Source of the DNA: Candidatus Omnitrophota bacterium
GTDB taxonomy: Bacteria; Omnitrophota; Gorgyraeia; Gygaellales; Profunditerraquicolaceae
Reading direction: 5' to 3'
DNA length: 64,000 nucleotides
Assembly (NCBI GenBank): GCA_029571225.1
Contig: JAKPTF010000035.1
Coordinates: 12,575-76,574 of the forward strand
This document shows, in pieces, positions 15,314-41,000 of this stretch (its first letter is position 1; each line of letters starts with the position of its first letter). The notes under the pieces are model-generated. The model made no database searches. It was not told the DNA's origin and saw only the letters and a program-made list of their open reading frames with translations. Made by a program: the position numbers and the translations under genes.

Positions 15314-15329
15314 CGTTTCTTCTCCTTTT

Positions 15330-17076: not shown

Positions 17077-20000
17077 TTAAATATTTGTCGAGAAACAGCC
17101 GTCTATCCATACAACAAACTCGATCGCTGTTTTTTCAAGGACATTGTTGTTAAACGCTCCCGCAAGAAAGGCTTTGATGCCGCCGTCTTTGTTCTCAGGC
17201 GCATTGTCGTTCTTATTGTCTTTCCCACCCTTATCATATTTCACATAAAATCCTGAAGCAGTTCTCTGAGTCTTCTGCGCATCCGTGCACGCAGCCCGCA
17301 TAGTATCAATAGCCGCGTCTATATTGCCTGCTCCCTGAACCAACGACCGCACGTGATCGGTCTCATACCCGCACCGGCACCAAAGATGCGCAAGCTGTGA
17401 TTTTTGTTCGCAGGTCGCTTTAAGGCCCAGAAGATAACAAATATCCTCTTCGCTGAACACGTAGCTGCCGGTATACTCTGATCGCCGACAGCACAGCTCG
17501 ATCAAAAAACTTGTTGTTTCGGCATCGAGGACAATAAGGCTTGCTTTGCTCATGTTCCTGATCTGAGTCTTATTGAACAACGGTTTATTGCCTCTATAGA
17601 TAAGCGAAAGCAGGAATGCGTTTCGCTCCCGCCGAAGCCAGTACGCGATGCTCTTCAGAGGCCCGGCATTCATTCCTTTGCGAGATTCCATGAATTCGCC
17701 AAGCCTCACATACGGGCTTATATTATCGGGCACCAGGCCTGCTTCCACCAGCGCCGTAACAAGCTTGCCCATGCGCGTATTGCAAAGTTCAGCCAGCCGT
17801 CTGCTGTCCATCCGCAGGTCCTTAAGGAAAAGGAACTCGGGGTCCCCATACTCTCCTGCCGGATTGTTTATCCGGCAACACAAATTGAACCCCTGCTTTC
17901 TCCAGAAACCGGTCAAGCCTGCCAGATTATTCTGCGAAACGAGCACGGACGCAAAATCGCTCCCCATGGCCCTGCATACCGGTTCCATGAATTGTTTATA
18001 CAAAAATGTGCCAATGCCTTTCCCACGCAGGGCCGGGTCGAGCATAAGCTCGATCTGTGCGCGCCGCTGGGTATCTATTTTGGTAAAGTGCATCATTGCC
18101 AGCGGCATCTCCGTTGGTTGCGCGGTTCGGTCTCGCAGGAATACGGAATACGCAAAACCATCCCGTGATGTCACGACTGCCCGGAGCGAAGCGATCCCGG
18201 TCAGCTTTCGCAGCTGTCGTATCGGCAGTTCCGATTCGATGAAGGTCTTGACGGGAATTGCGCCTCCGTCCGAACGGCGCACCGCGTATCCAGCCCCGGA
18301 CCGCCGGATATTGACAGCAGGGTCACGCCGCGGATTGAACACGTAATAATATTCGCTCCTGTCCTCGCAGGGCAGGGACAATTCCCGGCTACGATAATCG
18401 TCGCTGTCAAGCGCCTCCTTTGCGTCTGCGGTAAAGCAGGCCCCTCCTGCAGTGAATACGTACGTACGGCTATCCATTCTGACTTTCTTCGACTCGCTCA
18501 AGGCGCTTTTTCTTACCAGATACTTGAGATAAATCCGCCTCTCCAGAAGCTGTTCGTACAGACACTGTTCCCCGTGCAGAGTCGCATCGGGATAACTTCT
18601 GCAAAAAGCCAATGCCTCCGCATAGATACGGCAGCTGGTGCTCAGGGTAAAACCTGCCTCAGGCGAATAATCGAACAGTATCTGTAATGCGCTGCACGGC
18701 CACCTGAAGAGGTATCGGTCAAGCGGGATCTCGTCGCAGGCCCTGCGCCCTGACGGACAGAACGCAAGGGCAATGTCTTTCCTGCCATGCGCATGTGTAG
18801 CTCCGAATTTGCGCTGCAACAATGTATTGATTTCAGGGAATCCGCGCTCTGACCGGGCAAAGCAGCACGCCCCGTCTGCGCATCTGATCCTGCCTGCCGT
18901 TTCCCGGGAAAAACGAAGTTCTATACCGTGATTTCCGCCGTCTCTGCCTCTTTTCCCCCCACCAGGATCGTCCGGAAGAACCTCAGATTCGGCCTTTGAA
19001 CGGGTATAATGCACCACGACGGCTGCACAGAATGCCGCTGTCAATATCGCGCTCAAAATGAAAACCGTATTGGACGGCAGCGCAATCAATCCCATGTCCT
19101 CAATGCCCGAAAGGAACAAATAAACCAGGAGGCCGGCGGTAATCAGTTTGCTTACCCATCTCAGGCATGTTGAGATCATCGGATTGTGCTGCAGCGTAAG
19201 CTGGCAAAGGGATTTTGATACGCATACGTCCAGCACAATGACCAGTAAGACCACATTGATTATGAAAGCCGCAAAGGTAATCCCCGTGCCGAACCGGCTG
19301 AGCAGCAGCGGCGTTATTCCGAGCAATCCGGGGCCCGCGATCAAAGGAAAAGAAACCGGGATTACGCAGAACCATTTATAGGGAACGGCCTCGAAATATC
19401 TGCACACATGGAGGCGGGGCATGAAGAAATCAAGACAGAATATTCCCAGGACGATGACGCAGGCGATCTTCAATATCCCCAATTGGAACAGGGACAGGGA
19501 AAGCCCGAGCGCCATGAAGGCAATCACAAAAACGATTGATATCGGCATCGACAGCAACAACAACCTCCTGATGCTGCCGCGCGTCAAATTAAGATGCTGG
19601 GCAATCGCACGGAAAACGATCGCGGTTCCGATGATATTGATCGCCATGCCGACTACAAATACCGCCATGGCCAACTGGTAAAGCAGGCCCATCATGCCTC
19701 CGTCCTGCTGCGCCTCAAGTCGCCGGAGCATATCGATCGACCGAGCCTGCGCATAAAGGCCTTTGCCTCTGAGTACCTCCCGGTAAAAAACCAGTATTTC
19801 AATCCACGTCCGGCCGGAAAAGTAAAGTTTCTGGTTGCCGAACCTGACCGGATGGCCGTTATCTATCAGGAAAAGCCCTGTTGATTCTTCAACGACCTTA
19901 ATGACTTCTTCCGGCGAGACCGATAGAGAGACCTCCTTGATGAGCCGGCGGTAGAATAACATCCGTTCCTGCTGGGATACGAGCCGCTTCGACCATGGAG

Positions 20001-23000
20001 CGCGCCTCTTGCGCGTCTCGATACGCGCGAGTATGTTATCGTACTGGCGGATCAGTATTCCGAACAGGACCTGATGAAGAAACGCATGGACGCTTTGATC
20101 CGTACAGGCGAGCTCGCTGTAGAGAGCGCCCGGGGAGGACAGTTTTCTTTCGAAACGCAAGCTTGCGCGCTCGAACCTGCGTTGAGCACGCTCGATCGCA
20201 CGGCTGCTGTTCGCCGGATATACGGACACGATATCAAAACCGACGTGGTTATTCTCGAATACGACGAGCGCGCCGATATCCGGGTTGATGGCCACAAAAC
20301 GGCCGTCATTGATGAAGTAATTCGTATCATGGCTCAAGACCACCTCATACGGCATTGCCTCATACATGCGTAGCAGCTCAAGGACCGGTTTATTGCGGTC
20401 GTACAGCGGGCTGCGGCTCGGCCATTCGTATAAATGGCGGGAAAAATGCCAGCACAGATTTTCAACGCCGGACCATGCGATCCTGCGAGCGCCTCCGTCG
20501 AGATGGTTATTGCCGTTCTTGATGAATTCAATATACGTGGGAAGCGCTTCGACCACATCGTTGTCCCCTTTGACGAGGATCGCGTACATGCCGAGGCTGC
20601 GGGCCGGATGGATATCACTGTCAAGATTATCCCCCACCATAATGGCCTGCGAGCTGTCGATATTAAAATCCCGCAACACAATCCTGAACGCTTCCGGGTG
20701 CGGCTTTTCTTTCTGAGACGGGAAATCGTCCTGCGTGATGATACGGGAAAAATATTTCTTGATCTTAAGGTATTCGAGCGTCTTATATGCCATCGCTTCG
20801 CAGTTGTTCGTCAGAAGCACCAGGGGATAATCCTCTGACAGCCTATGAAGCACACCCTGCAGCTCGGGATTCGGCTGAAGGTACCGGGAAAGATCAATAC
20901 TGGCAGTCAAGTATTCATGATAATCGTGGGCGCTCAATCCGAACATGCGGCATATCCTGCTATGGCTCTTTTCGCTGCCGACGCGCTGTTCGATCTCCGC
21001 GGCGGATAAAAACGGCCTTCGGCACCTGATGAACTCGAGCAGCGCCTGGTCATATTTTTGTGCGAGCTCATCGCTGTCGTAGAGCGTGTTATCGAGATCA
21101 AAGATGATAACCGCGACGCTTCCCGAAACCCGCTGCTGGACAGCCGGCAAAAACGTAGAAAAGAAATAGTACACCAGACCCGAGAGCTGCTTGGGCCCCG
21201 GATGCTGCTGCTGGTAGTAGATCTTGCGCAGCCGCGCAAGATATCGTTTTTCAATGGGGATCCCCGCGTTATCGACAACTACGATGAATTCAGCCAGCTC
21301 CAGAGGATGCGCCTTGAAATATTCATAACTGATGCGGCGGCCGCCCCGTTCCCCTTGATGGGCAAGATGCGCCAGCTCGTGACGGAGGATATCTTCCTGG
21401 ACGACCCGGGGCAGGGTCAGAAAATACGGATGGAAGCAGATGGTATTGGTCTCCCGGACGCTGTGGGCGACCTTGGACCAGCGCAAAGACTCTTGCGCCG
21501 AGATAAGGACGTTGAATTCCGGCGGGCCGCGGATGATGCCGCGTGCCGTATGGACCAGATTGGCGAATTCCTGGAAGCTCCAGAAATAATCATACACGAT
21601 GGCTCCCGGCTTGATGGCATATCTGCCTTTGGAGATTGAAAAGGATAGGCTCGTCGGTATCCTTTTTGCGTATTTCTTTTGGCCTTCCTTTCGGGCGTGC
21701 GCCGGTATGACAAGCGGGTAAAAATGACGCCGATGGCCGTTATTATACATTCTAAAAATCTTCCCGATCAGGATCAGAGAATTCACCGCAAGCCAGACTG
21801 AAATACCGATGCTGATGGCCAGGTCGAAGAACGGCATGCCGGTGACGAAGATGGCGATCCCCGCTGCTATTGCGGCGATAGATGCCGCAAGGTCCCCGAG
21901 AACATGGATGTATGCCCCTTCCATGTTGATATCGGTGCCCGAATGGCCGCAGAGGAACCGGTACCCGACCAGATTCACGATCATGCCGAAGAAAGCGATG
22001 ATGAGAACCTCAGCCCCCCCCACCGGTAGCGGCTTGAAAAACCGGACTAATGCGGATATGATGATATACCCCGATGTTATCCCGAGGATCAGCGCGTTAA
22101 TGCCCGCTGCTGCCAGCTGGAGGAAAGAGTTGCCTTCGTATTTCGGTGCAAGCCCGAACCGGTGCGTGGCCCAATGCGCGACCAATGCGCAGCTCAGCCC
22201 TGAAATATCCGTTATCATATGGCCGGCATCGGCGACAAGCGCCAGGGAATGGAACCAGAGGCCGCCGATGACCTCGATAAGCGCATATCCGGCGGTAATC
22301 GCCAGGACGATCATGAGCACACGTGTCCCGGCGTGATGATGTTCGTGGCCGCCATCCCTGAAACCATTACGATGGTTGACGTTGCCGTTGAACGTCTCGA
22401 CCATCTCCGGGTATTCGGCATAGGCAGCATAGCCCTCGCCGATCACCTTTCTTGTCGCCGCGAATATGACCGCGGAAAATACCAGGGTCTGCGTCATGCC
22501 AATAGCAAACATGAAACCGAATACCAGATAAGCGCCGATAGACATCACAAAACTGCGCAGGAAATCGCGGCGCGCCGTGCTGCGGCGGTAGCCCCGCAGG
22601 ATACGCTGGGCATAATTGAGCGGCCCGCCGACCATGCTCACAAGAATGATATCAAGAATTATATTGACCGCCATGTTCCCGCCAAGCATCAATGCAAGCG
22701 GGTCTGAAAGATACATTTTAGCCGCGACAATGGGTATGCATGACAGGCCGCTCGCGAACAAATCATTGGCGAGCTTCTTACGGCGCACATAACCGTACGC
22801 GCTTATAAGCTTTCGCACGCGCGTGGAAATATCAGCGATCCGGGGACATACAAGCTGATCGCCTACATATCCGCACGCTTTCATATCGACAAGGGCATTG
22901 CGCACGATCACAAGGCTGATCCAGACGCAGGAAAGCACAATACTGATCTGCCCGATGCCCTGTCCGAGCGACATGCCGATAACGGTTGCAAGTATCCCCG

Positions 23001-26000
23001 CAATAACCTTGGCATAGGTCAACGACCTGAACCTATTGTCCTCGAACGGCAGCTTGTTCTCCATGATCGCGTCGCTGATGTCCTGGAACCGCCGGCTGCC
23101 CCCGTCTGCGATGCTGTTGTCAAGCACCAGGTCATACTCGTCATCCGGCACAAAAACCAGGCACCGCGATACGGCGCCCCATCCTCTGCACCGGGAATAG
23201 TGGCGGCGGTCCTCTTCCCGGGCAACAATCTTGACCTTGATATCGAACATGCCCCGGTCAAGGCTGCTGAGCGAGTGGATACCCTCGACGACAACCACCC
23301 TGGCCGGACATTTTGTCGCGCATTCAACGATGTCTGCGGTCAAGGAAGCCCAGTTATGGTGCCCGCAGGTATAATCAAACGATTCTATATACGCATCAGC
23401 TGCAAACACCTTCACCCAAAACCTGTTTGCAAACACAAGACCCGTAAAATACGTTTTGCCTACTCCGCTCGACCCGTCGATGAGAACAAACGCCCTGCCT
23501 TTCTTGCGGCACACGCCATCGATCATAGCAGGAAGCAGCGCCTGCCCTTCCTTGAGCGTGGCGCGGAGCGCTCCTCCGTCATTCCGGGGATACCGGGGGG
23601 AAGAGGCGGGATCTTCCGCCACGGTAGATTCATCCGCCTCTTTTGGCCCCCCAATATGATCCCTGGAATCATAACTCACGAAATGTATTGCTTTGCGTAT
23701 TGCTGCGGCGTAGAGCTTCCAGACATTGCCCGAATGGTTCTTATGATACAGGTATGATAACAGCACGATCCACGGCACTGATGCGCATTGCGTGATCATA
23801 TAAGAATACTGCGGGAACACCAGAAATGCGAAGAATACGACCGGAAGCCAGTACGGCAGGTTGGTCATGAATATGAGCCTGGGATATTTCAAATACCGGT
23901 GCACGCCCTGTGCCGTACCGTCATAATACACGTCGCGCAGGCTCTGGCGCAGCGGATGCCTTTCGACCCAGAACCTGCCCAGGAAGTATCCTGCGCCCAG
24001 GCCGAACCAGGTGCCCGGACCTTGATCAAGAAATGCTTTTATGACAGGGATCGGAAGGCCGGATGCCGGGATGCCGAGCGCTCCGGCGGTATATGCCGTC
24101 GCCAGCGGCAGGACTATCCCATACCACCCTATGCCGAACCAGGCAGCGCTGAACGTAAAACCCAGTATCCCTGCCCTGATGACCCTGCCCGTATCGAGAT
24201 GGCAGTGTTCTTCATCTATGCGGATCTCATAACACTGCGCGAAATAATTTGAGATCGCCGCGCTGATGCACCCGACGATCGCACAGCGTACATAATCAGC
24301 CAGAATATAGCTGCTCACATAGGCATCCACGGAAAGGCCTGTCGGAATCGGAAAGATCAGCATGATCGCTGCTGCAAACACGGTGAAAATGACTGACGTA
24401 AGCGCCAGCTGTATGATAAACTGCCTGACCTGGCCGTTTTCAGCGCCGCCGTCTTTGTTCAGATCACCAAACAGATGCCGCGCGACGCCGAACCATTCGC
24501 GCTCATAGGTGAGGCGCGAACGTTCGATGCCCCGGGCAAGCGCCATCGCCTTCTTTTGTTTCACGCCGAGAAATACCAGTTCTTTCCATGCGCCCTCTCG
24601 CACGCTCGCAACGAACAAATCAGCGCCCTTTTCGTCAATAACCCCTTTGCCGATCTTTTCGAACACGCCGGAACCCAATATCTGATGCTGAATAAAATCT
24701 TCGTTCAGGTACGCATACATATACGCGGCCATGGCCGCGCCGGCTTCCCTGCCGATCTTGCGTATCAATTTACGGGCAGCACCATTGCCCCGCACAGCTT
24801 CTTCAGTCAGCGAACGCAGTGTGAATCCCTGTTTCTTGAGTTTCCTGGTCAGGTTTGGCCCGGAAAACAGGTCTTCAAAATCGCCCCGCAGGTCATTCCC
24901 CGACTCGTCCTTCGGGTGATCCCCGCGCGTTTTGGAACCCAGGAAAATGAACCTGCCGCGGTATCCCTCCGGAATATCGGTAAGCGGCACCACGCTGCGC
25001 AAGACCACATTATGGCCGAGTTCCCGTATTTCGCCATGCTCGCCGGCATATACTTTATTGTCACGAGCTGCAGCGGCATTACTGCCCGTTCCGGATATCC
25101 AGACTGTCCCATGTCCCCAGGGGAACAGGGCACCTTTCGGCGTTAGTTCTCCGTCAACAGCCGCATTGCAGTCATTATCGATATACACGGGCATACTGCG
25201 GCCGAATGCCTTTTCCATCCGCTGCCCGAGCGCCTCCCGGAGCGGATAGTGGTCAAACGGCATGTTCTTTGCGGCAAAAGGCGTTCCGACAACCCCCTTT
25301 TCCTGGTCCAGAGGGCCGGCAAAAGCTATCCCCAAACCAGCGATCCTATCAACGGCAATCCGGTTGTCGCGGACCACCCGTTCGATTTCGCTTACCATGG
25401 CATCAACGCACTCCTCAGGGCTCGCCTGCATAAGGCCCTGTCTGAAATAATCGTTCCACAACAATTCGTCCCCGCGGGCAGCGACCTCATACTGTTTGGT
25501 GATCGCGCCGACAGCAAGCTTGCTTCCGCCCACGCTCGCCGCCATCACGAGCGGCCCGGATTCATCGTGCCGGGCTTTTTCGACAATATATCGTACGGGC
25601 TCAAGGGATTCGTTATACTGGATGACGTTACGGGCAATACCAGCGGGATTGCTGAAGCTTATATAGACGTCGAAATCCTGCGCCGTAGGGATACGATTAA
25701 AATCATCGAACGTCCGTTCCAGATAATTCCAGACCCTCCTTTTTGACAGGGACTGTTTGGTTTCCAGAATATAGCTGTCGATCATTTCATCGTCCGTCAG
25801 GAGCAGCCTGAAATCTGTGATCGCAAGCCTGACCGTATAGCCGTCGCCGTTCGAAACAACCCGTGACCTGTTGCCGGGGCGCCCCTCCAGGCGCCTGACG
25901 ACGCGGTCAACTACTGCAGCCACCGCATCGTCGTTTTCCGCGAAATAGACGATGTTCTTGACACGCTCGAGTCGGCGGTCGTCTTCAAGAGAAAATATGC

Positions 26001-29000
26001 GGTCGTCGGCATGGGCGTCAAGGATCATGCTGAAAACCGAAATATGCTTGCCGAAACCGGCAATCTGTTCATACAGGTCCTTGAAATGCGCGTTGAACTT
26101 GAATTCCATGATGCCGTTGACCGTCGTAGCATCGACTTCCTTTGAACCCTTGGCGGAGATGAACACCCTCTCAAAATCATCGATGTCCCCCAGGTTCGCG
26201 AGGAACGCGATGATGTCCTCGAACTCGAAGCTGAACTTATGAATGCCCGAGGTCTCGCCGAGCATGCCTTTCACCCGGCCATAGCATTTTGTATCATGCC
26301 TGCAGCCGACGTCATGGGTCCCCAGACGGCTGAACCTGGCGAGCGTCGAGCGCACAACATTAACGAGCATGCCCTTGTGGGGGAAACGCGAATACATGAC
26401 ATTACGGTTGCCTTCCTGCATCAGGTCGTCGAGTTTGCTGACAAAAACCCCCATGTCCGCCTTGCGCACGAAACGGTTCCAGTCCGGTATGATCTCGATG
26501 CCGCGGAACAGCTCCTGCATCTGGCAGGACAGGCGCGCATCGGCAGCGCCGGCTTTATTGGCGTAAATCAGGCCGAGCAGAAGGCCGGCGATCCTGCCGT
26601 CTTCGATCCTGATCCGCTTATCGGTAAAGGCCGCGCGCATTTTCCTGAACTGATCATCGAGAGCGGACGCAGCGGGACAGAACGAACGTATGTCTTGGCC
26701 ATAGAGCAGCTTGAATATGCGTTCCATGGCGTCCGTGTTTCCCGTGGCAGGAACCGTAAGATCATTAAGCGCCTTATCAGCTGACGCAAGGGCCTCAGAG
26801 GCCGGATACGAGTATCTGACAATATTGGCAAGTATGGCCTGCCGCTCGTGTCCGGGCAGGCGCAGGAAAAAGTTCAGGTCGCCGTTAATTACCTCCTCGT
26901 TGCAGGAATCTTTTATCAAACATCGGTCGCAATGCAGTTTATGGCGGAGGATGAAGGTAAAGGTTGGTATATCGTGCAGGGCTGATGCGGGCAGATCGAT
27001 GACTCCGGTGACGGCGCAGGTCGTGAATATGCCTTTGTCGCTCGGGGAGGAAACAAGCTGGTAATCAGGAGGGCTCCTGATCGAATACACGTATCCCCAT
27101 ACCTTGTATTTCTTGAGCGTGTCAAGGGCGGCATTGAGGATACGCACGATATCGTCCTTGGTAAAACCCTCGCACTGGCAATTCTCAATGATCACCTGTT
27201 TGCCGATGATCCTGCCGTAGATGCCCGGCGCTGTCGCTGACGGCGCAATCGGGGCTTCGCCGCCGTCTTTGCGGCTGTTCATCCTGTCAAGCACCGACAG
27301 GAGCCTCTTTTGCTCCCGGCTTCTGGCGATCTGCAGGTCTTTTTCATGCAACCCTGCCCAGAAGTCATGATGCAGATGCCCCGCATTCTCGATAATGATC
27401 TGATCGATGCGCCCGCCGATTCCGCCGCGGGCCATTACCTCCAGGACGAATTCGAGGCGGAAGGACTTGCGCAGCGGCAGATTGATATTGTCGATCAGGT
27501 ACGGCACGCAGCCGCGCTCGCCGAATGTTTGGATAAATTCTTTGTAGGGCCACCGGCTGTCTTTGGCCATAACCGCCACGCTTGCGAGCACCCGCTGCGC
27601 AAGCAGGCCGGTAAGGATATCGCGGTAACTCCATCCGAACATCTCCGGATTTGCGGCTTTATGGATCGATTCGATGTATTCGATAAACCTGCTGCCGAAA
27701 CCGTCGGTGTCTTTTGCAAGCTCCTCGATGACCCGGGAATTGAATTGCAGGTTGAACACGCCCATCAGGAACTCAAGATAGAGGTCGAATAACGGCATCT
27801 TTTTTTCCGATGTCAGGAATATGATGCAGCCTGCCAGCCGGTCAACGATGATATGGCGGGCGGCATATTTCTGCCGGGCGTCTGATGGCAGGAGGCGGCG
27901 GTCAAGCACCCACACCTGCATTTCTTCCCTTTGAATCTGACCGCTGTTCAAATGCCTCTTCCACCATTTCGGCTTGACCGATTTTCTGTCAGTGAAAACC
28001 GAGGCGAACGCGAGCATCATGCGGAATGGTTCGCGTTTTTTCTCCAGAATACGGTTATAGATACCGGGGTATCTCTCGAACAGCGCAGCGACCTCTTTCG
28101 GTTTGTGCTGTTCGATGAGATCGCGCATGGCCGGCTCGGAGATGGCAAAGACTGTGCGCGGGATGCCTGATTTTTCCATCTGGCCGAGAAAGATGTCGCG
28201 CGCCTTGGAAACGCCGGAGGCAGTCGTCGTATCGAGGTCTGCCTTCAGGAAATTCCTTCTGATCTCGGCGAGCATCTGATTCAGTTCTTCCGGGTTATAG
28301 AGGTCCTTGCGGTACCGGTTCAGATGCATGGCGCGGATATTGCCCATCGCGTATCCCAGGTCGATCTCGAGGTCGCTCGTGATCCTTGTCGCGCTCACCA
28401 CCGAACCCGTACTCCTGAATTTCTTGCGGTTAAATGGTATAAGAAAGTGGATGTTTTCCGCGACCTTGCGGCGCAGGACCAGCTTCGGAAACAGGTAATC
28501 GATAAAACCGCTGACCACCTGGCTGAAAAGTTTCCTGCTGATCTGGTATGCGCCGGTTTGGCCGAGGATATTGCTGCCGCCGAGCAGGGTACAGCCGATC
28601 GTCGCAATGGTAAAACCGACGTCCTTATACGCTTCCGTGTATTGGGCATCGACGCCGAATCCTTCTTTTTTGCGCGTGTACATGGAATACAGGACTCCGG
28701 CGACGATATTGACAGGCAGCTGGATCAGGACGATGGCGAGTATCTCACCGTATCCGAGGATATTAACGGCAGTCCAGAGCGACGCGATGTTGAGGACGGA
28801 AAAGATGATGAGGCCGTAAAGCCCGTACTGGAGGAATTGCGCGAATTTCTGCCAGTCGATATCGGCCCAGTCCCATTTCTTGACCTTTCCGCCGTACCAG
28901 TGTATCTCATCCGTTATCACCGAGCGCAGGAATACGCTGACATGCCACAATATCCAGGAAATAACGGCCCACTCGTATCCGATAGGGATGCCGATGGTGA

Positions 29001-32000
29001 TGAGGAACACCGCAAGGACACCGACAAGCGACAGGGCGATCCAGCCGATATATTCCCAGCGGATCTTCTTCCTTTCATAAATATTCTTGATGACCGGGTC
29101 CGCAGCGACTTCCTTGCCTTCTCCGCCGTCCTGAACGGCCCCGGCTCCCCATCGGGAATAAATCCTGCGGTACGCATTCTGCGTGGCTTGGTCCCTGCTG
29201 AGCCTGAACTGGTCAACGGTGGCATCGAGGATATATCCGGAATCCTTGCCCGGAGGCGTTATAATGACGAAACTATGGCCGTCGAGTGCATGATACCTGT
29301 TCTCTTTAGCATATACCTGATCGACCCGGTACCCGAGCAGGGAGAATGCCTCGGCAAGCAGATACGACGCTAATCCGCAGCAACGCGGATATGCGGGAAG
29401 CGTTTTGATATACAGGTGCAAAATCCTGACCACGGCATCCGCCTGCGCTTCTACCGTGTCCATTTCATTCACCCGCAGCACCCGCATGCCCTTGAGCATC
29501 TTACTGCGCAGGACGCGCGCCTGCAGATACGGCCGCCTGCTTCCGGGGATAATGGAAATAAATCCGATGTGGTTGGCCAGATAATCAGGCGCAGGCTGCG
29601 AGGAAGCAAGATAGAAGTTATAGACAAGCGACCGCTTATCGAGTTTGTCCATTGGGAACAGAACATAATCGCGTCCCTTCTGCCCGGAAATTGAGCGTAA
29701 ACGCGTATATTCGCGCATGCGCCGTACCCTGACTTTTCTTCCTCCGTCCTGCGTGACGCTTCTTGCATTGCGTCTTTTTTCAATGGCCATAATGGCTTCC
29801 CGAACCGCACGGCGCACCTCAAGGTTCCTGTCGTCGCGGAATCTGGCCAATACTTCGATGTCGTTTTCATCCCCTATTTTACCCAATGCCGCAGCGGCAT
29901 TGGAACGGCTGCGGAAATACACGGACGGTTCGAGATATCGCGCCAGCATATGTTTTGCCCGACAATCACCGGTTTTTGCGCTGATTGTTCCGATTGCTTC
30001 AATGAAATCGGGGGTAACGTTTTCATTGTCGCTTTTGCGCTCCAGGGCAAGCATCAAAAACGGTATGGCGCCGGGATTCGCCATTTGCCCCAGATGACCT
30101 GCTCCTGTCCTGTTCCAGCAGTTATGATAATTGAATATCATGTTGATCTGCTGCCAGATGGGGGCCTTGCCCTCTTTTGTCTCGATCCTGCCTCTGACCT
30201 TTCCGGCTGCCTTAAACGCCTCAAAAACAGACGCATCGATATAAAATAAGCGGATAACGCTCTCTGAACGCGCATGCCGGAATGTTTTCTCGCACGCCGC
30301 GAGCCCATCCTGTTCCATATCGTGCTTTATGCGCCTGAATATCTCAACCGGAACTTCATAAACCGTTCCGCGTACCCGGCTACCCGGTTCCCTGACCGCG
30401 ATCGCCGAACTATATACTTTGCCGTTGTATTCGAATGCATATTTATAGATGCCAATACACCCGATATCGAGCTCGGCGTTCGTTTCGCGGAACATCCTCA
30501 ATATATCAAGGTCAAACCCAAGTTTCCACGGCCCATAGACAAACAGGGAAACATTCTCTTCTCCGCCGTCGCGCCTCGTATGATTATTCGTTGTGCGCAC
30601 GCGCTCCAGCAGGGCTGCCAGCTCGCCGCGCCGGTAGCGTTCTAAAAGTATCGCGCGCTCGCGAGCCACAGATGTATTGCTTATTCTCCTGCCAAGTTTC
30701 ACAGACACTTCCCATGCGGTAATTCTTTGCTCTCCGGCAAGAAGGTTATCGATAGCGGCACGGTCATCCAATGTTATGCCATTTCGTTCCATGGTATCAG
30801 ACAGAACTTCAACGACCCCGTCCCGGATCGTCCTGGGATAGCGGCCCATGTTATTGTCAAACTCTTGAATGTCCGGATATATGGCCTTCATGATCTTCCG
30901 GTCCACGCTTTCTATCTGGAATCCCTCTTTATTGACAAACCTGATCGTGATTGCTCCGAGGAATGCAAGAACGCGCAGATCCAGATTCGGGTTTAATGCA
31001 CCCGTAATGCCTTTTGATAAAAGAGCCACAGCCATGGCCCATTTCGTCAACGGACCTGACCCGTAATCATGCGTATAGATGAGGTACAGCCTGCGGCGCT
31101 GCAGGGGGATCGGGTTCAGAAGTATTCGTTCGACGCGCTGAACCGTATTGCGGCTCACGTTCTGGCTTTTTTCCAATGACTTAATCCGGGCAATGCGCGT
31201 ATCTTTGGAGAACAGCGTTTTCATGGTACGCATGAACATTATCACATGCCTAACAGACGTGACCTCCGAAAGGCCGGCCTTTCCTTTGAGATGCTCGAGC
31301 AAAGAATCCAGTTTGACTGCATCGGGATCTTTTCCTCCGTCACGGAAAGGCTCACAAAACATCCTGGTCCGCTGAATGGCGCGTTCCTGTTCTTCCGCGA
31401 TCCGGTAAAACTCTTTATCGGTAAAATAAACGCTGCCACCGTATTCCACTTCCAGAGCATCCACAATAAGCTGGAACAAAAACATCTCAAACTGAACCTT
31501 GTCCAGCGGAAAGCTGATGCCGGAATCGATATAATGGGACAAAGGCGATTCGACCCTCTCGCCGTAATAATACTGCGGCAAAGCTGCCAGGATGTCCTGC
31601 TCCCTGCTCAAGATCCCCCGCTGATGCATGATCCTGATAATGAACAATTGCAAAACCATTGCGAGATCGTGGAACTCGGCGTCCGGGCTATTATCGGGCA
31701 TCGTGATTGTGATCTGCGAAAGTCTGCCCTGTGGATCATAGCCGACATCTAAGGTGCCGTAATCGTCCGTCCTGTTTTCACCAAGGGGATATATTACGGT
31801 CTCGATATTCACCTCCAGGTTTGTTGCCAGGCAGCGGATGAACGCCCTGAAACCGGGGAGCATCATCTTTTTTGCCTGCCGCGAGCACGCGGACGCGTGC
31901 ATCATGCGCATTGCGCTTTGTACCCTGAAGAAATATTCCTTCAGCCTTCGCGCCAGGGAAATATGGCTGTAATAGAACCGTGTTTGCGCATACACCGCTG

Positions 32001-35000
32001 CATCATCCTTGCCGGTAAGCACTGCAGCACAAGGGTCCACGGTATAAGACCTGAAGAAACCGATCGCGATCTTCTTCACATCCTTCCTGTCCATCCCCTC
32101 ATCGATCTCTTGCTTATAGATACGGTACAGGCCGCGCACCTCAGCCGCGCAGGCGCGCTCCGCAGGTGCGCCGAGACCGCCGTCTTTGGCAGCCGGGGAT
32201 CGCAATAATTGCCGGACGCGTTCGTGCAGCGCTTCTATGGAGCCGTTGTTGTCGATGATACGTGTCCTCGGATCACCACGGAGAGCGTCAAGCGCCGGTT
32301 TCTGACGCGCTTCGATATCGCCTATCTGCTCCCTGCTCAAACCGCGCGCAGCGAGACGGCTGTGCCTCACAGATTGGTCGGCGTCAATAAGCCAGATCTC
32401 ATCGCACAGGTCATCCAGCTCCTTCATCTCATTGAGCACTGCGGCTTCGATGACAATCATGGCCTTTCCCGACCGTTTTGCTTGAGCTATCCCGGCAAGC
32501 GCCCGCTCTTTCATGGGCTCGAACATGATCGCGTTCAGGGCGCGGCGCTGCGATTCATCGCCGAATACGATCGCGCCGAGTTTCTTCCGGTCAACCGCTC
32601 CGTCAGGCGCCAGGACGCCTGCGCCGAATCTTTGTACGATCTTTTGAATCATACCCGGATCAGCCCTGACTTCATGGCCTATGGCGTCCATGTGAATGAT
32701 CCTGACGCTCTCCATGACCTCTCTCTCGATCAGTGTGCATACCGTTGTCTTGGCGCTTCCGATATACCCGGCTACGCCGATTATTCTGGGCGTGCGGAAT
32801 GCCCTGTCTGCGGCACCCGGAAGCAGCGATTTGGCCATGACAACAGTTCCGTCATATTCAAGCGGCCCGCGGAATCCGAGAGACCTCAGGAAGCCGACAA
32901 CGTCCCTGCACGGTTTCCCGGTCTTCTTATTGGGCCTGACATGCACGATCAATTCCGTTATGGCCGGATCCCTGCTGAACTCGTTTTCAAGCAATGCGCA
33001 GAATATGCGTCCGCGCCTCAGTTTAAGGTCCTGCGGATACGTGCGCCAGAAGCTGACCACTGCCGCGTTCCCCCGCGTCCGGACCCTGGCAAGCCCGACC
33101 CAAGAAGACCGCTCACCGCCTGTTGCCAGATAGACAGTGTCCGGTTTCCGCTCGCTGAACTCAAGCCGATATTCCGGAATTCCTGTCTTGCCGCCGTCCT
33201 GCTGCGCAGCCGCCTGCAGTGGCGGCACCGGCGCATTGAGATCAACGGCATGATTGAGAATATGCCATTGGCTGTCATTGACGTTATGCGCCCTGGCATA
33301 CTCCTGTAATGCATCTGCCCGCTCGGCAACGGCATATTCTTTCCACTGCTGCGTCCCCTGCATCACGTAGAGATCAGCGACAAGGCCCGAAAGCCGGTCA
33401 TGCACCGGTTTGTGGGTCAGGTCAGGCCGCAGGACCGTGCGCAGGTATGCATGGGTCCAGATGCCTGCAGGGCCTTTGTTTATAAGATCGGCTTCGGCGC
33501 ACAATTCAGCGAGCTTCTGCTCTTTCTCATCAATACTGCCGGCCTTTTTTTCGCTCAACCATTTCCAGTACCTGCTTTCCACAGCTCCAAGCAAGTACAA
33601 CCAATCAACTGCCTGCAGGTTGCATTTGAACTCTTCGAAGCTACGGACATTGCGCGCAGCTTCAGGAACCCCGTCCCTGAAAGCATCACCGGCGTATATA
33701 CCGAGGCTGGCCAGGCGCAGGTTCATCTCTGCCATAAGCCCCAGCGCCTTGCGCAGATCTTCGAGCGAAAGATTGCCCACCATGCCTATGAACTCGTCTC
33801 TGACGATGGTTTCGAAGAACGGCCGCAGCCGTATGAATGAGTGGACTATCGGGCCTGCAAGAAAGCCTGCATTGGGAGCGCGTTTCTCCCTTCTTTCAAC
33901 CAGATAATCCTGCGGGAAAGCCGTGCGCATATCATAAAGCAACGCTATTTTCTCCCTGGCATCCGTATCCGAAACTCCTGCAGAGCGCATTTTCTCGCGC
34001 AGAAACGCATCGGAACGGAGATCTAACCGGAATTCCGCCCTGTGATATTTATTCCACACCGGCACGTCAAGAAGCTTTGCCGCAAGTTCTGCCCTATCGT
34101 CGCGCAGCAGACGGGTAAATGCATATACACGGTGCTTCTTCGCAAGGCGCGATACTGCGCGCGCTGCGCGCTTCAGGTAAAAATCAGGCATTTCTTTGCG
34201 TTCCGGATCCATAAGCATCTTGACGGCGTGGTAATCAAACGGGAACATAACCGCATTGCGGAGAAAGGGCGCCAGCAGGCCTGCAGATCCGAACAACGAG
34301 ACGAGTGCCACGAATAAAGCGTACGGTAATCCGGCAATTGAGGCTCCGGCAAAAGCATATAGGCCTGTAACGACTGTGAACAATGCGCAGGCGCCACAAT
34401 AAAACGAAGAGAACCATTCAGACGATCTTTCTTTTTTATTCAAATAGACAATACGGCGAAACAATGGCGCTGGTGAAAAATCGAACGGTTCCATGGGTTG
34501 ATTCTCGTATTGCGGCACATGGTGCGGCCAGGTGGCAAACGTGGCATGCATCTTGTCAGGGAAATCCTTATACTCTTTGCCGCCTGTATATGTCAGCCAG
34601 GGAATCAATATAACAAAGATGAACACGCCTGCCGCAAACGCAAGGACCGGGATAAGCAGCCCGCCGTCCCTGACCTGCTGGCCGCCTGCTGTCTCCGGAT
34701 CGACTGCATGGTTGAGCAGGATCCAATCATTCTCGGTCAGCTCGTTCTCACGTGCCAGATCCCTGAGATACTGTGTTCGCTCATCTGCAGAGCGGTTCTG
34801 CCAATCGGACGTTGTTTCCTCTATATAAAGCTTGGATACGGCTTTTTTGATGTTCTCTGGCGCAGGGGCAAGCACAGTCCGGAAATAGACGAATGTCCAG
34901 CATCCGGCAGGCGCATCTTTATGCAAACCATGTTTATCGAACATCCGGAGCAAAAGCTCATCCTGTTCGATAATGCTGTAAAGAGCGAGCTCCCATTTGA

Positions 35001-38000
35001 TATGCTGGAAATCCTCGATGATATGGTTCTGGATGATCGAAACTGCAAGAGCATCAAGATACTGTTGGAACGCAGGCAGGCTGGTAACGCTTCGGCATGC
35101 TGCCGGGATCCATGTGGACACGGTCTTATCATCGACCATGTTCATCGAGGTCAGACGGGCCTGGAATTCCTGGGCATACTGCAGCGCCTGACGGAAGTCG
35201 TCGAGGGTGAGATTTCTCGCAAGATCGTACAGGGAAGCGGACCTGCCGTCCTGGAACCAGATCTTCTGGAGGTCAGGCAGGCCTTTCCAGTATATCGTTT
35301 CCTGGAATGCCTGCGCGTAGGCGCGGCCATGGGCCCTTTCGCGGGCGTTTTCCAGGATGCCTTGCTGGACCTCAAGCCGCAATGCAACGCGCCTGGAGGC
35401 ATATTCCCTGAGATCATCCGGTATTGCCGGATGGGCCAGTATTTGCCTCGCCTTATCAGCTTCGAACCGTTCGATCCAGTTATTAAGTATCGACACGAGC
35501 GATCCCCGCTCGATTCGTGCGAAAATCGGCGCTGCATTATCAACATCTCTATCGGTCAGATAATCTACGGAAACACGATCGAAGCGCCGGACAATCGCCT
35601 GATCATTGGCAAGGCGAAGGATATGCAAACAACATGTGCCTGCACGGCGGCCGAATACATCCAGCATCATCAAACACCATACTGCCAAAGCCTTTGAACG
35701 GGGTAATTTACTGATCAAATAGACGGCAAATGAATACCCGACGCATCCCAGAACAATCGACATATATATATTTCGCGTATTCCACCATACGAACATGGGA
35801 TATATGGCCGGAATGACCCATGCGATAATAAATGTAAGGATGATCGGCACGGCATTGCTCTGCATCCTCGGATTCGCTGCTGCGGGATACGCCGGCTGAT
35901 CCGGCCACAGGCGCAGGTTCTTGATGAAACCGAACGGCCGGAGCAGGGACTGTCCGCCAATACCTCCATCGAAATTCTCGAGAATATATCCGTGCTTTTC
36001 CATATGATCCGTGCTGACAAACGCGAACGTCGGGCTAACGCCGGCCTCGCGGTTGGGTACTTTTATTATGCGGTAAAGGCCTAAGAGCCAAATGGAGTGC
36101 ATACCGAGGTACAGAGTCTCATCAGTTGCATTAAAAAAGACATGTTGTATCAGGCGGGAATGAAATATATCGGATTCACCACAGGCATAGTCCCGCAAGC
36201 CGAACTGGAGGCCTAAACGGGATGACGTGCTGATGCGCGTCGTATTTGAACGGCCGTCTTCGATGATCAGCGTATCCCACGTTTCGTGAAAATCGCCGGT
36301 GCGATCGCCATGGCACAAAAGCGATGACAGGTATATGGAAAAAGACAATTCTTTCCGGTCATATACCAGTGTAAACCGCCTGTTATCCGGCTGCCATATG
36401 ACGGTATCCCGTGTTTTTTCCCTTCGCAGGGCGTCTACTTTATCCAGATGTTTCGCAAGAAGATCAAACCTGGCCTGCGCCAGGCGCATGTGATGATACC
36501 GTTCATCATCGATCTCATCGAGCTTATCGAACGGGATGAAGCTGCTTCCGATCGGCAGGCTTGCGAGCAATTCCTGTTCATTCCTGAATGACTCGATTTT
36601 TTTACCGGCTATCGCGGAGACCGCCAAAGAACTGGTTTGTGCGCGCACAACTATCAACGCTTCAGACGGTTTCCCGAAGGCTGAATTTGAAAGTTTGCGG
36701 AATATGATATCACCGGCTTGTATCTTTTCCAATCCGGATATTTGGGGGGCAAAAGACTGTAACTCTGACATGTGGTTGGAAAGCTTGTGTTCTTCAGACA
36801 AAGTGTCCTTGTTAAATTCGCTCAGATACAGACGCATCCAGTCGCGGAGGCTGCGGCAAGGACTTGTCTTTTCCTGGCGCAGAAGATCAAACGCCGGCGG
36901 ACCGCGTAAGTCTTCGACAACATTGCGGTCAAACCACGATAAATCAACCGATGCCGCCTGGCTGATCGACTGCGCAACACCATGAAGGTCATCGTCGCTA
37001 ACGGATCTCATGGATCCGAAGCGGATCGTATTGTTTATCTCCGGGCAAATCCCTGGTACGCGGCTTGCCAGGGCATGCGCGGAGGACTGAAAAAGCAGCG
37101 CTTCATCCCTGGTAAGACTTCGGTACGCTTCAACCCGTGCAAGGAACGCGGATACTTCGGCATTGATACCGGGCTGTTCGCCTTTGCTGCGAATATAGAG
37201 CAAGTGCGCAGGCCTCATAAGCGCCATGAACATGAATATTTTCCTCTGCGGGATAGTCAATTCTTCCATGGCCTGCTTCAGCGCATTATTCATAACCAGA
37301 CAATACGTTGTACTGCCCTGTGCCTCATCCATGATGTTCACATCCCAGGGGCTCTCAGTGCGATCCGCCCAGAAAAACCCCGTTGAGCCTTTTGTAAGAG
37401 CGCAATAATAACACGGGTATACGATCTTCATCATGGCCAGGCCATGCTCATAAACCCTGGTATCCATGGGAAGCGCGACAAAATCCGCAGAGTGCTTTTC
37501 GATGAACGAAGACTCAAGCGCAAGCTCCCCGGCAATAAAACTGATGTTTCCTTTCCTGTCCGCGCCTCCGTCTTTGGGCTTCTGCGCATAAAGATTGACC
37601 TCATACAATTCAGACCGTTCCCAGTACGGGAACGCTGCTTTGGCAAGCAGCGCCCGTTCGTATTCGTTCAATTTCATATCAGAAGCAATCCCGTCAATTA
37701 TTGCCTGTTTATCCTTGGCCGGCAGCGCGTTCCAGTCATGCCTGCCCTGCTCCACAAAAAGCCTGCTGGCTGCGGCAGACGCCTGATTTTTGATTAATCG
37801 AATTTTACCGCCGTGGGGAAGGGTTTCAGAAACAAAAGATTCATCTTCCAGTACCGTGTTTATATATAGTCTCGTCCAGCCGCCCGAAGCCACCTGCTCC
37901 TGAAACGCCAGCTCCCTGCAGATATCGATCAGCTTTTGGTCTCTGCTGAACCACCGATTGTACCTGGTATAAGCTCTGTAACGGGATGTGATCTCAGTAA

Positions 38001-41000
38001 TGATCGCCATGGCCTTGATAGCATCCAGATTTCGCTTGAATTCGGCAAGGTCAACTGCCAGACAGGCGGCGGGGATACCGTCATTAAATAATGGTTTGAT
38101 ATCGACTTTACCGTTCAGATACACATAAAACCCCTTGATATGTTTCAGTGCCTGTTCGAAATCCCGTGCAGGAATAGTTTTCAACAGGCGCAGGAAGTCC
38201 GTGTTTGAGAACAAATCCCTGAAGAGCCGGTCAGCATCTGCGTTTCTTTCATTCTCCAGCAATCTGAAAACGGAACGCTGATCTAACGGATACGCCTTGA
38301 TCTGGTTCAGCATATCGTAAATCAACTTCGCCTTTTCCCTGCCGTCCGGCTCCGATGCCGCAGCCGTGACGATCTTATAGTAAAATTCGGTTTCTTTCTT
38401 TGCCCGCGGCAATAATATCCAATCGCGCCTTTCTTTCAATTCACGCGTCATTTTCCACCACGGATGGTCGACGATTTTGATTGTTTTCATTTCCTGGCCA
38501 TTGATAAGCCACTGGGTCAATACGCGCATCAATACATCATTATCCAGCCGCCCGTACAACGCTACTGCCCGGGCATACTCCTTATCTGCAATAGACGCGG
38601 GATCCTGTTCATCGAAATCCCTCATTTCCTTCAGGTCATTCCCGAATGAGCTCACTCTCTGTATAAACAATTGGACCCGCTGCGCCCGTGCAATAAGCAG
38701 GCACAATCCGGTGGTGAGACCCAGAACGATTAATAGTGCCGTTTGATTATCTACTAAAATAAAACAGGCAACGATGGTGACAACCAGGAAAACGCCGAAA
38801 GCGAGTATATTAAAGAATTCCTCTTTCATGAGAGAAAGATCGCCTTCTTTTACCTGTGCCATCTGCAGGCGGATACCCGGCTCTAACAGAATCTCGCTGA
38901 TTCCGGTGCCGGATCCCTGCTGCCTGCCGCCGTCTTTTAAAGGCGGGAGCGCATCTTCGGAAATGCCAGGATCCAGGGATTTATTCAGATGGTACCATTC
39001 CTTAAGAGAAGATAACTGATTGTCCTGAAACAGGGTTCTCATGAATCCGGCTTTCTGCTCGGGCGTATACGCCTTCCACTCAGGTTTTGATTGCTCGTTG
39101 AAGATCCTGAATACTGCTCTTTTGAGATTATCCGGGCCATGTGCCAGGATAGTTTTCAGGTATACGTGCGTCCAGGAACCAGTCTGGCATCTCGTCCAGA
39201 GTTCCAGATCATCGGCGAGTTCCTTCAAATACGCGACCTGCGCGAGCGTATCATTGGCGCGGTATTGTGCCTGCTGCCATTTGATAAACCTGGCAACGAT
39301 GCCTTCGATGATCACCATGCTCTCGACGCCCTTAAGGTTCTCCCTGAAAGACTCGATGCTTGCCACACCACGGCATGCGGCCAGCAACCCTTCATTGACC
39401 AGCTCACCTGTGCCGAGGCCTGAACGCGCCAGGAATGCATACAGGCCGCTAATCAGTTTCAGGCATTCCCGGAAATCCTCGACAGACAGGTTACGCACCA
39501 GATCCTTGAATTCCTCGCGCGTGCGCATTTCGACAAAATCCTTTTCGATTTGCTGCGCGCGAACATCCCCCAGGGATGCGCTGTTCATATCCCTCAGCAT
39601 ACTGCATAATGACTTAACTTTTGCCTTGGCGTCACCGAAAGACGGCACCGCATCCTGCATTGCGTCAAGGAGAAGTGCCTCATTCTGTATCAGAGATTCA
39701 TATACCTTGCGTCCTCTGCTCATCGGCCGATGCGCCATAATAAGCGCTATCTTGTCGGACTCTCCCCTGAACAGCAGGTCCTTTAAAAGCAGAACGGTCA
39801 TGTAATGCGTGGTCCAATAGATGGCCCTGCTGGCGTTTTTGATCTGCCGTTCTGAAAGGGCCTTTGTTTGAACTGCATAAAATGTATTCAGGGCTTCAAA
39901 TGTCCAGGAAATACGCCACATTTTCCCGAAAAGACCGTACATATAACGGGTAAATTTAAATATACAGGCAAAGAACATCCAGATAAACGGCCAGATTGCT
40001 GCTAAAACTACCGCCGCAAAAATGCCCGTGTTCTGCGATATGATTACGCCGCCTACGAGATGCGGGCCGAAGATACCAAAGGCCACAAGCCCAGAAATCA
40101 AAAGAATACCACTGATAGAGTGCCATGGCAAGAAGCCTTTCGTAATGATCTCAAGAGCACGTTTAGCCTCCTGCCAGAAAATGTTGGTCAAGTACTCTAT
40201 CAGCCGCTGCCTGGCAAGTTCCAACGACAGCCTTCGATATTCCTCGTACGTATAGGGGAATCCTTCTGCCTTATGCCGCGTGCTTCTGCCGCCGTCCTTC
40301 TGGCCATTGCCGTTGACGTCACGGCGGCCTGCGGCGTAGAACCCGCGCTCCTGCAGGATCTCGTCGCGGATGATCGAAGCAATGGCAAGCGGCACGTTCT
40401 CGATGTCGCCCTCAACAACCCAGTGCGAATACACCTGCTGGACATAGGTAATACCTTCACCGATGCCTAAACCGATGACCTTGATGCCTTCAGCTTCGGC
40501 TTTCTCAATTTCCTCCTGCATGACCGCGGTATTATTGAAGTGGCCGTTGCCCTCTCCGTCTGTGATGATGATAATAACACGGCTATCTACTGTTTCTTCG
40601 CGCATCTTTTCTACTGCCAGCCGCAGCGCATCGACGTCGCATGTAGCGCCGCCACCCATGAAGTTTATGATCTCGCTGATCAGCTCTTCTTTTTTGGCCA
40701 GGTCAAGCTTCTCGTCAAATTCTTTGTGCACCCATGCCCCTGAATGAAACCCGATGACGTTGAATTCAATGTTCAGGTACTGGAGCGTCTCCATGAGCAG
40801 GACCAAACCATGGATCTCGTCTTCCACGCGGCCCATCGCGGGAATACTGCCGCTTTCGTCCAGCAGCAGCGAGAACCTGTGGCTGCGCGATTCCGGCCGC
40901 GTCTTGCGCAGCCAAACCTTATCGTCGCTAATGCCCTTGACCTCATATGCGATATCCGCCTGCATTAGCCTGCGAAGGTCTATCTTCTTGCCGGTGCGGT

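Follow-up and report, generated by a model that had tools for sequence, protein, structure and literature searches.

Asp-Gly-Gly tripeptides border the evolving cassettes of an Omnitrophota giant gene and may mark the cut sites of a putative bacterial polyprotein

Viral polyproteins can be cut at Gly-Gly, as are pp220 and pp62 of African swine fever virus (ASFV) by pS273R at GG-X, while the coronavirus PLpro cuts at LXGG. Double-glycine leader peptides of the bacteriocin and PCAT systems are processed by C39 peptidase domains. Here we analysed a giant open reading frame (ORF) in which the tripeptide Asp-Gly-Gly (DGG) recurs between protein-sized cassettes; it lies on a 64,000-nt stretch of DNA from a Candidatus Omnitrophota bacterium (contig JAKPTF010000035.1), the whole of which is referred to below as the window. 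Omnitrophota giant genes, the longest known in bacteria, have been described in two papers, both of which leave undecided whether the product is cut or uncut. West-Roberts et al. (2023, “Archaeovorins”; 10.1101/2023.11.21.568195) suspected cleavage of the giants, stated that the cut points are not known and found C39 peptidase domains, the double-glycine type, close to the N-terminal ends of full-length giants. Nielsen & Lui (2026; 10.64898/2026.06.07.730766) distinguished a “multi-enzyme metabolic cluster” class of Omnitrophota giants. The occurrence of TIM, HAD, ROK, GNAT, AAA_5, HEAT and TPR domains in these proteins has been described (10.1101/2023.11.21.568195; 10.64898/2026.06.07.730766), and the presence of housekeeping and glycolytic domains inside Omnitrophota giant proteins is thus already published. 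A delimiter motif or cleavage points are reported in neither paper, nor elsewhere in the searchable literature, and the words cleav-, polyprotein, motif and DGG are all absent from the second paper (10.64898/2026.06.07.730766).

All long ORFs of the window are on the minus strand. The giant ORF occupies a single frame of that strand and stays open for 46.9 kb from 17077 to the window edge, with its sole stop codon at the end. The original prediction of a gene exceeding 47 kb is borne out by this single frame, with the length in the window being a lower bound because the orthologous giant gene in a 96%-identical strain (L003, Logan assembly SRR31357138) is called at 23,525 aa; the N-terminal ~7,900 codons lie beyond the window. 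Giant genes located beside orthologues of the downstream FBA-PFK-GAPDH fusion are called at 23,525, 30,339 and 26,119 aa. Our data comprise the 64-kb window and fragments of relatives, whose giant genes are covered only in part. The phylum, an ORF of >10,000 aa, and many distinct enzyme Pfams combined with transmembrane (TM) segments are those of the Omnitrophota multi-enzyme giants and, because its domain repertoire equals that of the published Omnitrophota giants and its synteny is conserved, the window gene belongs to this class. Approximately 60 hydrophobic segments are distributed over the ORF. An RNA-level explanation of the region was dropped, as the window contains neither Rfam families nor tandem repeats.

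DGG is the most over-represented tripeptide of the giant ORF, with 37 occurrences against 4.16 expected (Poisson P=1e-22; maximum of 13 in 2000 shuffles). The sites span window positions 17187-63411, and the 38 pieces that they delimit have a median length of 341 aa. The corresponding DNA pattern has 37 copies in the ORF frame, a single one in the two remaining frames of the same strand and three on the plus strand. By contrast, Gly-Gly as such is present 84 times vs 69 expected, with 37 of these within DGG, and outside DGG it is not enriched. The preceding residue is mostly K, R or Q. Because synonymous codon variants occur at the sites, the constraint on DGG operates at the protein level. 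Internal stops are absent from the ORF and only one cassette starts with Met. The possibility that DGG is an in-frame Shine-Dalgarno sequence (GGAGG) was rejected on the latter ground and because most sites read GACGGCGGC.

Comparison with relatives shows that the cassettes are units of evolution, which are conserved, gained, lost and reordered as blocks exactly at DGG. In L001 (JGI 3300018490), with modules 24-70% identical to those of the window, M02, M04, M23, M24, M28, M30, M32, M33 (C-terminal part) and M36 are collinear with the window and nine cassette ends fall on DGG, the subject sequence not having been split beforehand. Other window cassettes are missing from that stretch, such that M23 directly follows M04, vs a spacing of 18 cassettes in the window. 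The alignment with L003, 96% identical over 25 kb, has one gap only, M35 (762 nt), a whole unit between two DGGs; its absence from so close a strain indicates that M35 is dispensable. L013 carries M29, M30, the HExxH-HAD unit, M35 and M36, each ending at DGG (five ends), while homologues of M29 (N-terminal part), M05, M03 and the CDF domain are found in a different order in L004, each DGG-bounded. The homologous cassettes of L004, P0040 and P0150 (NCBI MCX5708745.1, 5,225 aa, Candidatus Omnitrophota) likewise begin and finish at DGG. Enrichment of the tripeptide extends to all relatives, at 8-11 copies per 2,750 aa. P0150 has 18 DGG vs 1.2 expected and consists of 19 cassettes, among them a receiver domain and units resembling TIM, CoaE, GNAT and M27. 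L001, L004, L013, P0040 and P0150 thus have DGG boundaries at positions homologous to those of the window and, as in a polyprotein, units that evolve independently are bordered exactly by a short recurrent motif.

Some further features of these relatives were observed. At the M35 indel (L003 6352-6371 vs window 18934-19695) the linker before DGG differs, RRLEAQQ vs RQTESQER. L013 harbors at 2308-2943 an inserted cassette, PHP-domain-like by eye (FHIHSNMSDG ... LTDHNT), which has no window counterpart and separates the ROK-bearing cassette from the M30 homologue. P0150 is named just “dephospho-CoA kinase” in NCBI; this name hides its multi-cassette make-up and may distort metabolic reconstructions.

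The original prediction described the CDF, HExxH and HAD parts as sharing one DGG-bounded unit, an odd membrane-plus-soluble fusion. They do share one unit (M33), and the relatives provide an explanation for its oddity, as the alignments indicate that M33 is two cassettes merged by decay of the intervening DGG to Asn-Asn-Gly (NNG). In L004, the CDF TM domain is a cassette of its own (43% identical, both HxxxD motifs kept) that ends ...GNGRDGG, and the NNG site is located just past the point where this stand-alone CDF cassette ends. In L013, the HExxH-HAD unit starts straight after a DGG, with window MYN-NG-HRRHFYPLV aligning with L013 SK-DGG-RQRLFYPLV. M29 is likewise composite, its 540-aa unit, which is DGG-terminated in L004, being joined to the ROK domain.

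DGG also follows leader segments in separate proteins encoded downstream of the giant gene. The three fusion proteins of the window and the first post-giant ORF of L013 share a layout in which a basic and then hydrophobic, signal-peptide-like start with an AxA-like end is followed by x-L-R-P in three of the four (HLRG in FBA-PFK-GAPDH) and, 10-40 residues later, by K/R-DGG. Among 12 FBA-PFK-GAPDH orthologues, K-D70-G71-G72 is invariant while the signal-peptide-like leader varies; hence DGG behaves like a recognition site and not like a mere linker. Orthologues of the FBA-PFK-GAPDH protein are 67-70% identical and the two with organism names are from Candidatus Omnitrophica metagenome-assembled genomes; the copy in Logan SRR31357138 is 97% identical. 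A GTDB scan with the FBA-PFK-GAPDH alignment returned four relatives, all on short contigs of metagenome-assembled genomes, three labelled Candidatus Omnitrophota and one an uncultured Planctomycetales bacterium; a GTDB scan with cassette M28 gave no match. The order giant gene, ~510-aa ORF, FBA-PFK-GAPDH, (PGI-like), PPDK, TIM-PGK-enolase is conserved and the cluster co-oriented, the TIM-PGK-enolase fusion following in relatives (L004/L007 10001-25000, L013 7151-13528). For ATP-dependent glycolytic enzymes, signal peptides would not have been expected.

These data are best accommodated, in our view, by a polyprotein, a reading that we hold to be fairly probable, in which the cassettes would be cut after DGG and would represent specialised paralogues of housekeeping families. 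The region forms the 3′-proximal part of a giant gene built of protein-sized cassettes, each ending in Asp-Gly-Gly. It would be translated as one chain, as suggested by the absence of internal stops and by the single cassette that begins with Met. A putative protease would then cut after each DGG, freeing soluble enzymes and small membrane proteins as individual products, and may also trim the leaders of the neighbouring fusion enzymes. The cassette products would be made in fixed proportion to the fused glycolytic enzymes encoded just downstream. Under this mechanism the CoaE-, ROK-, CDF- and HAD-like cassettes would be long-resident specialised housekeeping paralogues, with intact sites in HAD and CDF and fixed variants in CoaE and ROK, and not simply ordinary housekeeping genes displaced into a big ORF. 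The presumption of processing in the original prediction fits the DGG evidence. Cleavage would also resolve the implausible topologies in which kinases alternate with odd numbers of TM segments, a problem that was noted by West-Roberts et al. (10.1101/2023.11.21.568195).

All four modules that the original prediction had located in the giant ORF as CoaE, ROK, CDF and HAD are genuine homologues within the one giant frame and exceed the Pfam gathering scores, which were used as cut-offs; once converted to window coordinates, the matches agree with the positions predicted originally (Table 1). The matches are to CoaE PF01121 (E=1.7e-25, 90.2 bits vs cut-off 27, profile 2-178/180), ROK PF00480 (E=9.5e-12, 45.5 bits vs cut-off 22.9, profile 6-233/294), Cation_efflux PF01545 (E=2.2e-20, 73.7 bits) and HAD_2 PF13419 (E=3.5e-23). 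The MarC-like assignment of M35 fared less well, since the match to MarC PF01914 is sub-threshold (E=0.047, 13.5 bits vs cut-off 23.9, profile 8-170/203) and NCBIfam gave no match to this cassette; a MarC-like identity is plausible, not significant, and its sole agreement is the topology of six hydrophobic segments.

The original prediction also had the modules keeping their signature motifs. An alignment of catalytic residues upheld this for HAD and CDF, while CoaE and ROK carry variant residues. HAD motifs I-IV are intact (FDLDNT, LLTNN, KPHP and VGDNLDSD, aligned to PH1655, PDB 2hoq) and are conserved in P0001. The six-TM CDF domain has HxxxD on TM2 and TM5 (ADAGHMITD and YIHVLGD), aligned with the ZnT1 site residues, and these motifs are retained in the L004 cassette. 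The C-terminal cytoplasmic dimerisation domain PF16916 (ZT_dimer) gave no match in the window cassette; it is present in all stand-alone CDF relatives P0002-P0009, and the L004 cassette stops right after the TM domain. In the CoaE cassette, the P-loop reads GYIGSAKT (32746-32769) and the conserved Asp is at 32686-32688. Lys16 and Asp37 are invariant in the alignment, and Ala replaces the Gly before the P-loop Lys (GSAKT). The same variant is found in the embedded CoaE cassettes of P0040 and P0150, and the stand-alone CoaEs compared, to which the cassette is 28-41% identical, read G[ST]GKS, ASGKS or ACGKS. Dephospho-CoA kinases (DPCKs) in the PDB match the cassette, down to 3.6e-19.

Canonical ROK proteins are defined by the phosphate-1 motif DxGxT and the zinc-binding cysteines CxCGxxGC. 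The window cassette and its L013 orthologue keep the ROK motifs ND (DNDCNAA) and ExGH (GEIRELGH). The phosphate-1 motif reads S-V-G-G-S-K here and S-M-G-G-T-K in L013, with Ser (25534-25536) at the position where Asp is expected, and no Cys motif follows ExGH in the window ROK or in the 66%-identical L013 orthologue. Judged from its residues, the module is a ROK-fold relative that need not have the activity of a canonical glucokinase. The CoaE and ROK cassettes constitute conserved embedded lineages (64-66% identity in relatives), within which their active-site variants are conserved.

All cassettes compared with the 96%-identical strain have a ratio of nonsynonymous to synonymous substitution rates (dN/dS) of 0.11-0.42. 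The cassettes are therefore maintained by purifying selection, though not all as canonical enzymes. Triosephosphate isomerase (TIM, PF00121) catalyses with a Lys on strand 1, a His and a Glu. The TIM-like domain of M04 matches PDB TIMs at E=2e-34 and aligns to TIM residues 60-237 only. The first 59 residues, including the N-terminal Lys strand, are missing, AYEPIW is changed to IYLPLW with Leu in place of the catalytic Glu, and only the His is kept; the YLP variant is also present in P0150. M04 is likely a pseudo-enzyme or a repurposed barrel and, as it is without two catalytic residues, the housekeeping modules are not all functional housekeeping enzymes.

The polyprotein reading must be set against several points that weigh against it and against rival accounts of the locus. 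The Asp codon of DGG is GAC at 32 of the 37 sites (86%) vs 46% elsewhere in the ORF (P=4e-7), and the first Gly is GGC in 68% vs 49% elsewhere; the GAC bias may reflect some DNA- or RNA-level constraint. The residues before DGG (mostly K/R/Q at −1) are unlike the classical double-glycine leader consensus. No DGG-specific protease was found among the window candidates, and the two structure predictions made are of low confidence, with predicted local distance difference test scores (pLDDT) of 46-47. Indeed, M27 as a papain/C39-like DGG protease is unsupported: it has no Pfam or NCBIfam match even at E<=10, two weak relatives among 1.8 billion representatives, chance matches only in a PDB profile search and an AlphaFold model with a pLDDT of 47. 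Its Cys-His-Asp residues are conserved in P0150, and M27 as a protease is thus still a lead. The HExxH segment is a weak match to YgjP (E=0.049), and the predicted structure of the HExxH-HAD unit (pLDDT 46, from a two-sequence alignment) is unusable. Two M50 cassettes are present in the giant ORF, unsubstantiated as DGG protease, and Pfam finds no C39 domain in the window part of the gene, the N-terminus of which, where one could be encoded, is beyond the window. This failure to find a protease among the candidates would suit a single uncleaved, membrane-threaded mega-enzyme in which DGG is a favoured flexible hinge between domains, as would the ~60 hydrophobic segments along the ORF and the treatment of giants in published analyses as single polypeptides with many TM helices. 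We consider such an enzyme unlikely, as a hinge requires no exact tripeptide whereas DGG is invariant and its flanking linkers vary, GG outside DGG is not enriched, DGG also follows signal-peptide-like leaders in separate proteins, and soluble ATP-dependent kinases would alternate with odd numbers of TM segments, an implausible topology. It is most improbable that the ORF is an artefact, be it of mis-assembly, of a string of pseudogenes or of a wrong genetic code that lets separate genes run together. This explanation is favored by L001 and L002 (JGI 3300018489), where the region is split into many short ORFs by frame changes. However, 46.9 kb are free of stops in one frame, no bacterial code removes all three stops, dN/dS is well under 1, and L013 carries its homologous stretch unbroken. 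Moreover, the independent Logan SRR31357138 assembly is collinear at 96% identity, covers window 158-26070 with the frame staying open and aligns gap-free across 26070-19722, and the L001 frame changes are inside cassettes and not at their borders, as indel errors would give. The homologous region in L001 and L002 comprises ~10 short ORFs, with frame changes at largely identical places in both samples; these changes are either systematic indel errors or the mark of a decaying copy. That the short ORFs are separate cassette genes was rejected because the frame changes sit within cassettes.

Two further accounts concern what the cassettes do. Under the first, taken from the original prediction and the published predation hypothesis, they would be exported cargo or effectors whose site of action is the predator surface or the outside or inside of prey cells. 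The Sec-type signal-peptide-like N-termini of the neighbouring fusion enzymes, the strain-variable cassette content, typical of interaction loci, and a literature that ties giants to prey attachment, prey digestion and nearby secretion genes all speak for export; yet an extracellular role is not obvious for the ATP-dependent CoaE and ROK kinases or for a HAD phosphatase, and P0150 begins with a receiver domain and no signal peptide; we regard this account as rather doubtful. We are similarly sceptical that the embedded CoaE, ROK, CDF and HAD are the sole copies in the genome, with essential metabolism needing the giant gene. Purifying selection on the cassettes and the conservation of the CoaE and ROK lineages agree with such a role, and the downstream genes supply the remaining glycolysis as fusions. 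Hexokinase has been reported in 25 of 176 complete genomes, GAPDH, PGK, enolase and PFK in 176 of 176, and ROK in 44 giant proteins; NCBI, moreover, calls the 5,225-aa P0150 “dephospho-CoA kinase”. Opposed to this are the dispensability of M35 between near-identical strains, partly covered stretches of related giant genes that in some cases are without a ROK or CDF part, the catalytically defective TIM-like cassette and the non-canonical active-site residues in CoaE and ROK. Taken together, the M35 indel, the variable content, the TIM defect, the CoaE and ROK variants and the 28-41% CoaE identity point to accessory, specialised paralogues. Since the fused glycolytic genes adjoin, hexokinase is rarely reported and ROK is present in 44 giants, the ROK cassette may nonetheless be the entry kinase of the downstream glycolytic pathway.

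Table 1. Features of the giant gene and its downstream neighbours in the 64-kb window
Feature	Coordinates	Strand	Details
Giant ORF, 38 DGG-delimited cassettes M01-M38	17077..64000	-	at least 15,639 codons; 5′ end beyond window
M04	59704..61737	-	TIM-like domain and TPR repeats
M23, 338 aa	32176..33189	-	N-terminal 135 aa without assigned function; CoaE-like domain 32236-32784
M26, 274 aa	29740..30561	-	HEAT repeats (HEAT_2, 9.8e-09)
M27, 206 aa	29122..29739	-	orphan; Cys...His...Asp pattern RCCGLASYLL / GHSFVII / ILDAT
M29, 938 aa	24445..27258	-	540-aa unit without assigned function; ROK-like kinase (Pfam 24709-25533)
M33, 619 aa	20491..22347	-	CDF TM domain 21769-22317; HExxH 21367-21381; HAD 20572-21108
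Decayed delimiter Asn-Asn-Gly (AAT AAC GGC)	21736..21744	-	aligns with L013 Asp-Gly-Gly (GAC GGC GGC)
M35, 254 aa	18934..19695	-	six hydrophobic segments, weakly MarC-like; in L013 at 46% identity, absent from L003
12 in-frame DGG delimiters	20491..33198	-	9 nt each, running downward from the first Asp-codon base
First Asp-codon bases of these DGG	33198, 32184, 31341, 30570, 29748, 29130, 27267, 24453, 23580, 23106, 22356, 20499	-	
Conserved ORF, 553 aa	15330..16991	-	hydrophobic N-terminal segment; no family match
1726-aa fusion (FBA-PFK-GAPDH)	10163..15343	-	class II aldolase (partial), PFK, GAPDH C-terminal domain; signal-peptide-like N-terminus, KDGG aa 69-72
951-aa protein	7218..10073	-	weak PGI match; signal-peptide-like N-terminus, NLRP, then KDGG aa 67-70
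PPDK-containing ORF, at least 2398 aa	1..7194	-	extends beyond window edge; signal-peptide-like N-terminus, NLRP, RDGG and KDGG

In the window, and in each of the three distinct related contigs that were examined, the giant gene is immediately followed by an ORF of 509-553 aa. The positions of this ORF in the relatives are L003 8398-9984, L004 8452-9987 and L007 8439-9968. Lying between the giant gene and FBA-PFK-GAPDH, it contains the invariant blocks IIQIQDAHCNYEAQKNLA, MVEGGSGD and ITGGFHT. Neither Pfam nor NCBIfam nor a PDB profile search supported a protease function for this ORF, and an exact look-up of the 553-aa protein gave no match. Its motifs may resemble those of the TraB/Tiki/ChaN superfamily, a resemblance that none of the first three resources supports. 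The C-termini of the 1726-aa protein (10163-10940) and the 951-aa protein (7218-7990) are alike, with the pattern ...PLV(S/A)VSD(E/D)(V/I)A..Q..(Y/F)EDTLNKI; in the 1726-aa protein this shared region is preceded by a second DGG (~aa 1467), which is present in 9 of 11 orthologues. Between these two ORFs, at window ~10121-10153, is a perfect GC-rich, terminator-like inverted repeat, CCTGCGCGGCAGGCATGATGCCTGCCGCGCAGG.

Elsewhere in the giant ORF, seven paralogous cassettes of ~450 aa were recognised by eye (M10, M13, M15, M18, M19, M21 and M22; 33190-55788). They have N-terminal TM helices and the C-terminal pattern GVPAAAR ... GxWTHVYLKTIL ... LNKALDP ... DGG, and surround a 2330-aa midasin-like cassette with six AAA_5 domains (44626-51615) and a VWA cassette (40288-42666).

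The DGG cassettes, the cassette indels between strains, the delimiter decay and the leader-KDGG arrangement on the fusion enzymes were not found in the searchable literature and are apparently undescribed. The presence of DGG at cassette borders in five relatives provides concrete predicted cut sites that can be checked in existing proteomes, and allows giants to be split computationally for structure prediction, which is impossible without known cleavage points according to West-Roberts et al. (10.1101/2023.11.21.568195). The metabolic annotation of these reduced genomes is also affected, as seen from the P0150 name and from hexokinase being reported missing in most genomes. More tentatively, DGG could be the cleavage code of a bacterial polyprotein system and the giant genes stop-less operons, a possibility that we rate somewhat short of even. 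If true, dozens of ordinary-sized proteins (enzymes, transporters, proteases and AAA+ machines) would be released at DGG, cassettes could be gained, lost and shuffled in frame at a 9-nt delimiter, the leaders of the neighbouring glycolytic enzymes would be trimmed by the same code, and part of central metabolism (the sugar entry kinase and the CoA kinase) may be supplied only in this way. On the sober side, the enzyme domains were already known, the TIM-like cassette is defective and the MarC-like cassette is dispensable between strains.

How the locus compares with described systems depends on the level considered. With the published Omnitrophota giants it shares the phylum, ORFs of tens of kb, many TM segments, the HEAT, TPR, HAD_2, AAA_5, ROK, GNAT, TIM and peptidase domains, and glycolytic and PPDK domains nearby. 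Its CoaE, ROK, CDF and HAD modules show significant homology to, and most catalytic or binding residues of, their stand-alone counterparts (2grj, 2hoe, 8zb0 (CDF/ZnT) and 2hoq, respectively), but are embedded cassettes, with GSAKT in CoaE, Ser and no zinc motif in ROK and a CDF without its C-terminal domain. In working principle, the closest analogues would be viral polyproteins and double-glycine leader processing, a matter of resemblance. C39-processed leaders likewise have Gly-Gly at the end of an N-terminal leader, as on the neighbouring fusion enzymes, and C39 domains are reported near the ends of full-length giants that correspond to the N-terminus. By contrast, the present leaders measure 50-80 aa and contain a hydrophobic, signal-like stretch, most sites are internal, position −3 is always Asp and −4 mostly K/R/Q, and the visible part of the gene has no C39. 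The viral Gly-Gly polyproteins resemble the locus in that many functional proteins are encoded in a single ORF and set apart by a short motif with Gly-Gly at its end; unlike them, the gene described here is bacterial and chromosomal, 10-50x longer, and encodes membrane proteins and metabolic enzymes that would be released by a predicted cleavage.

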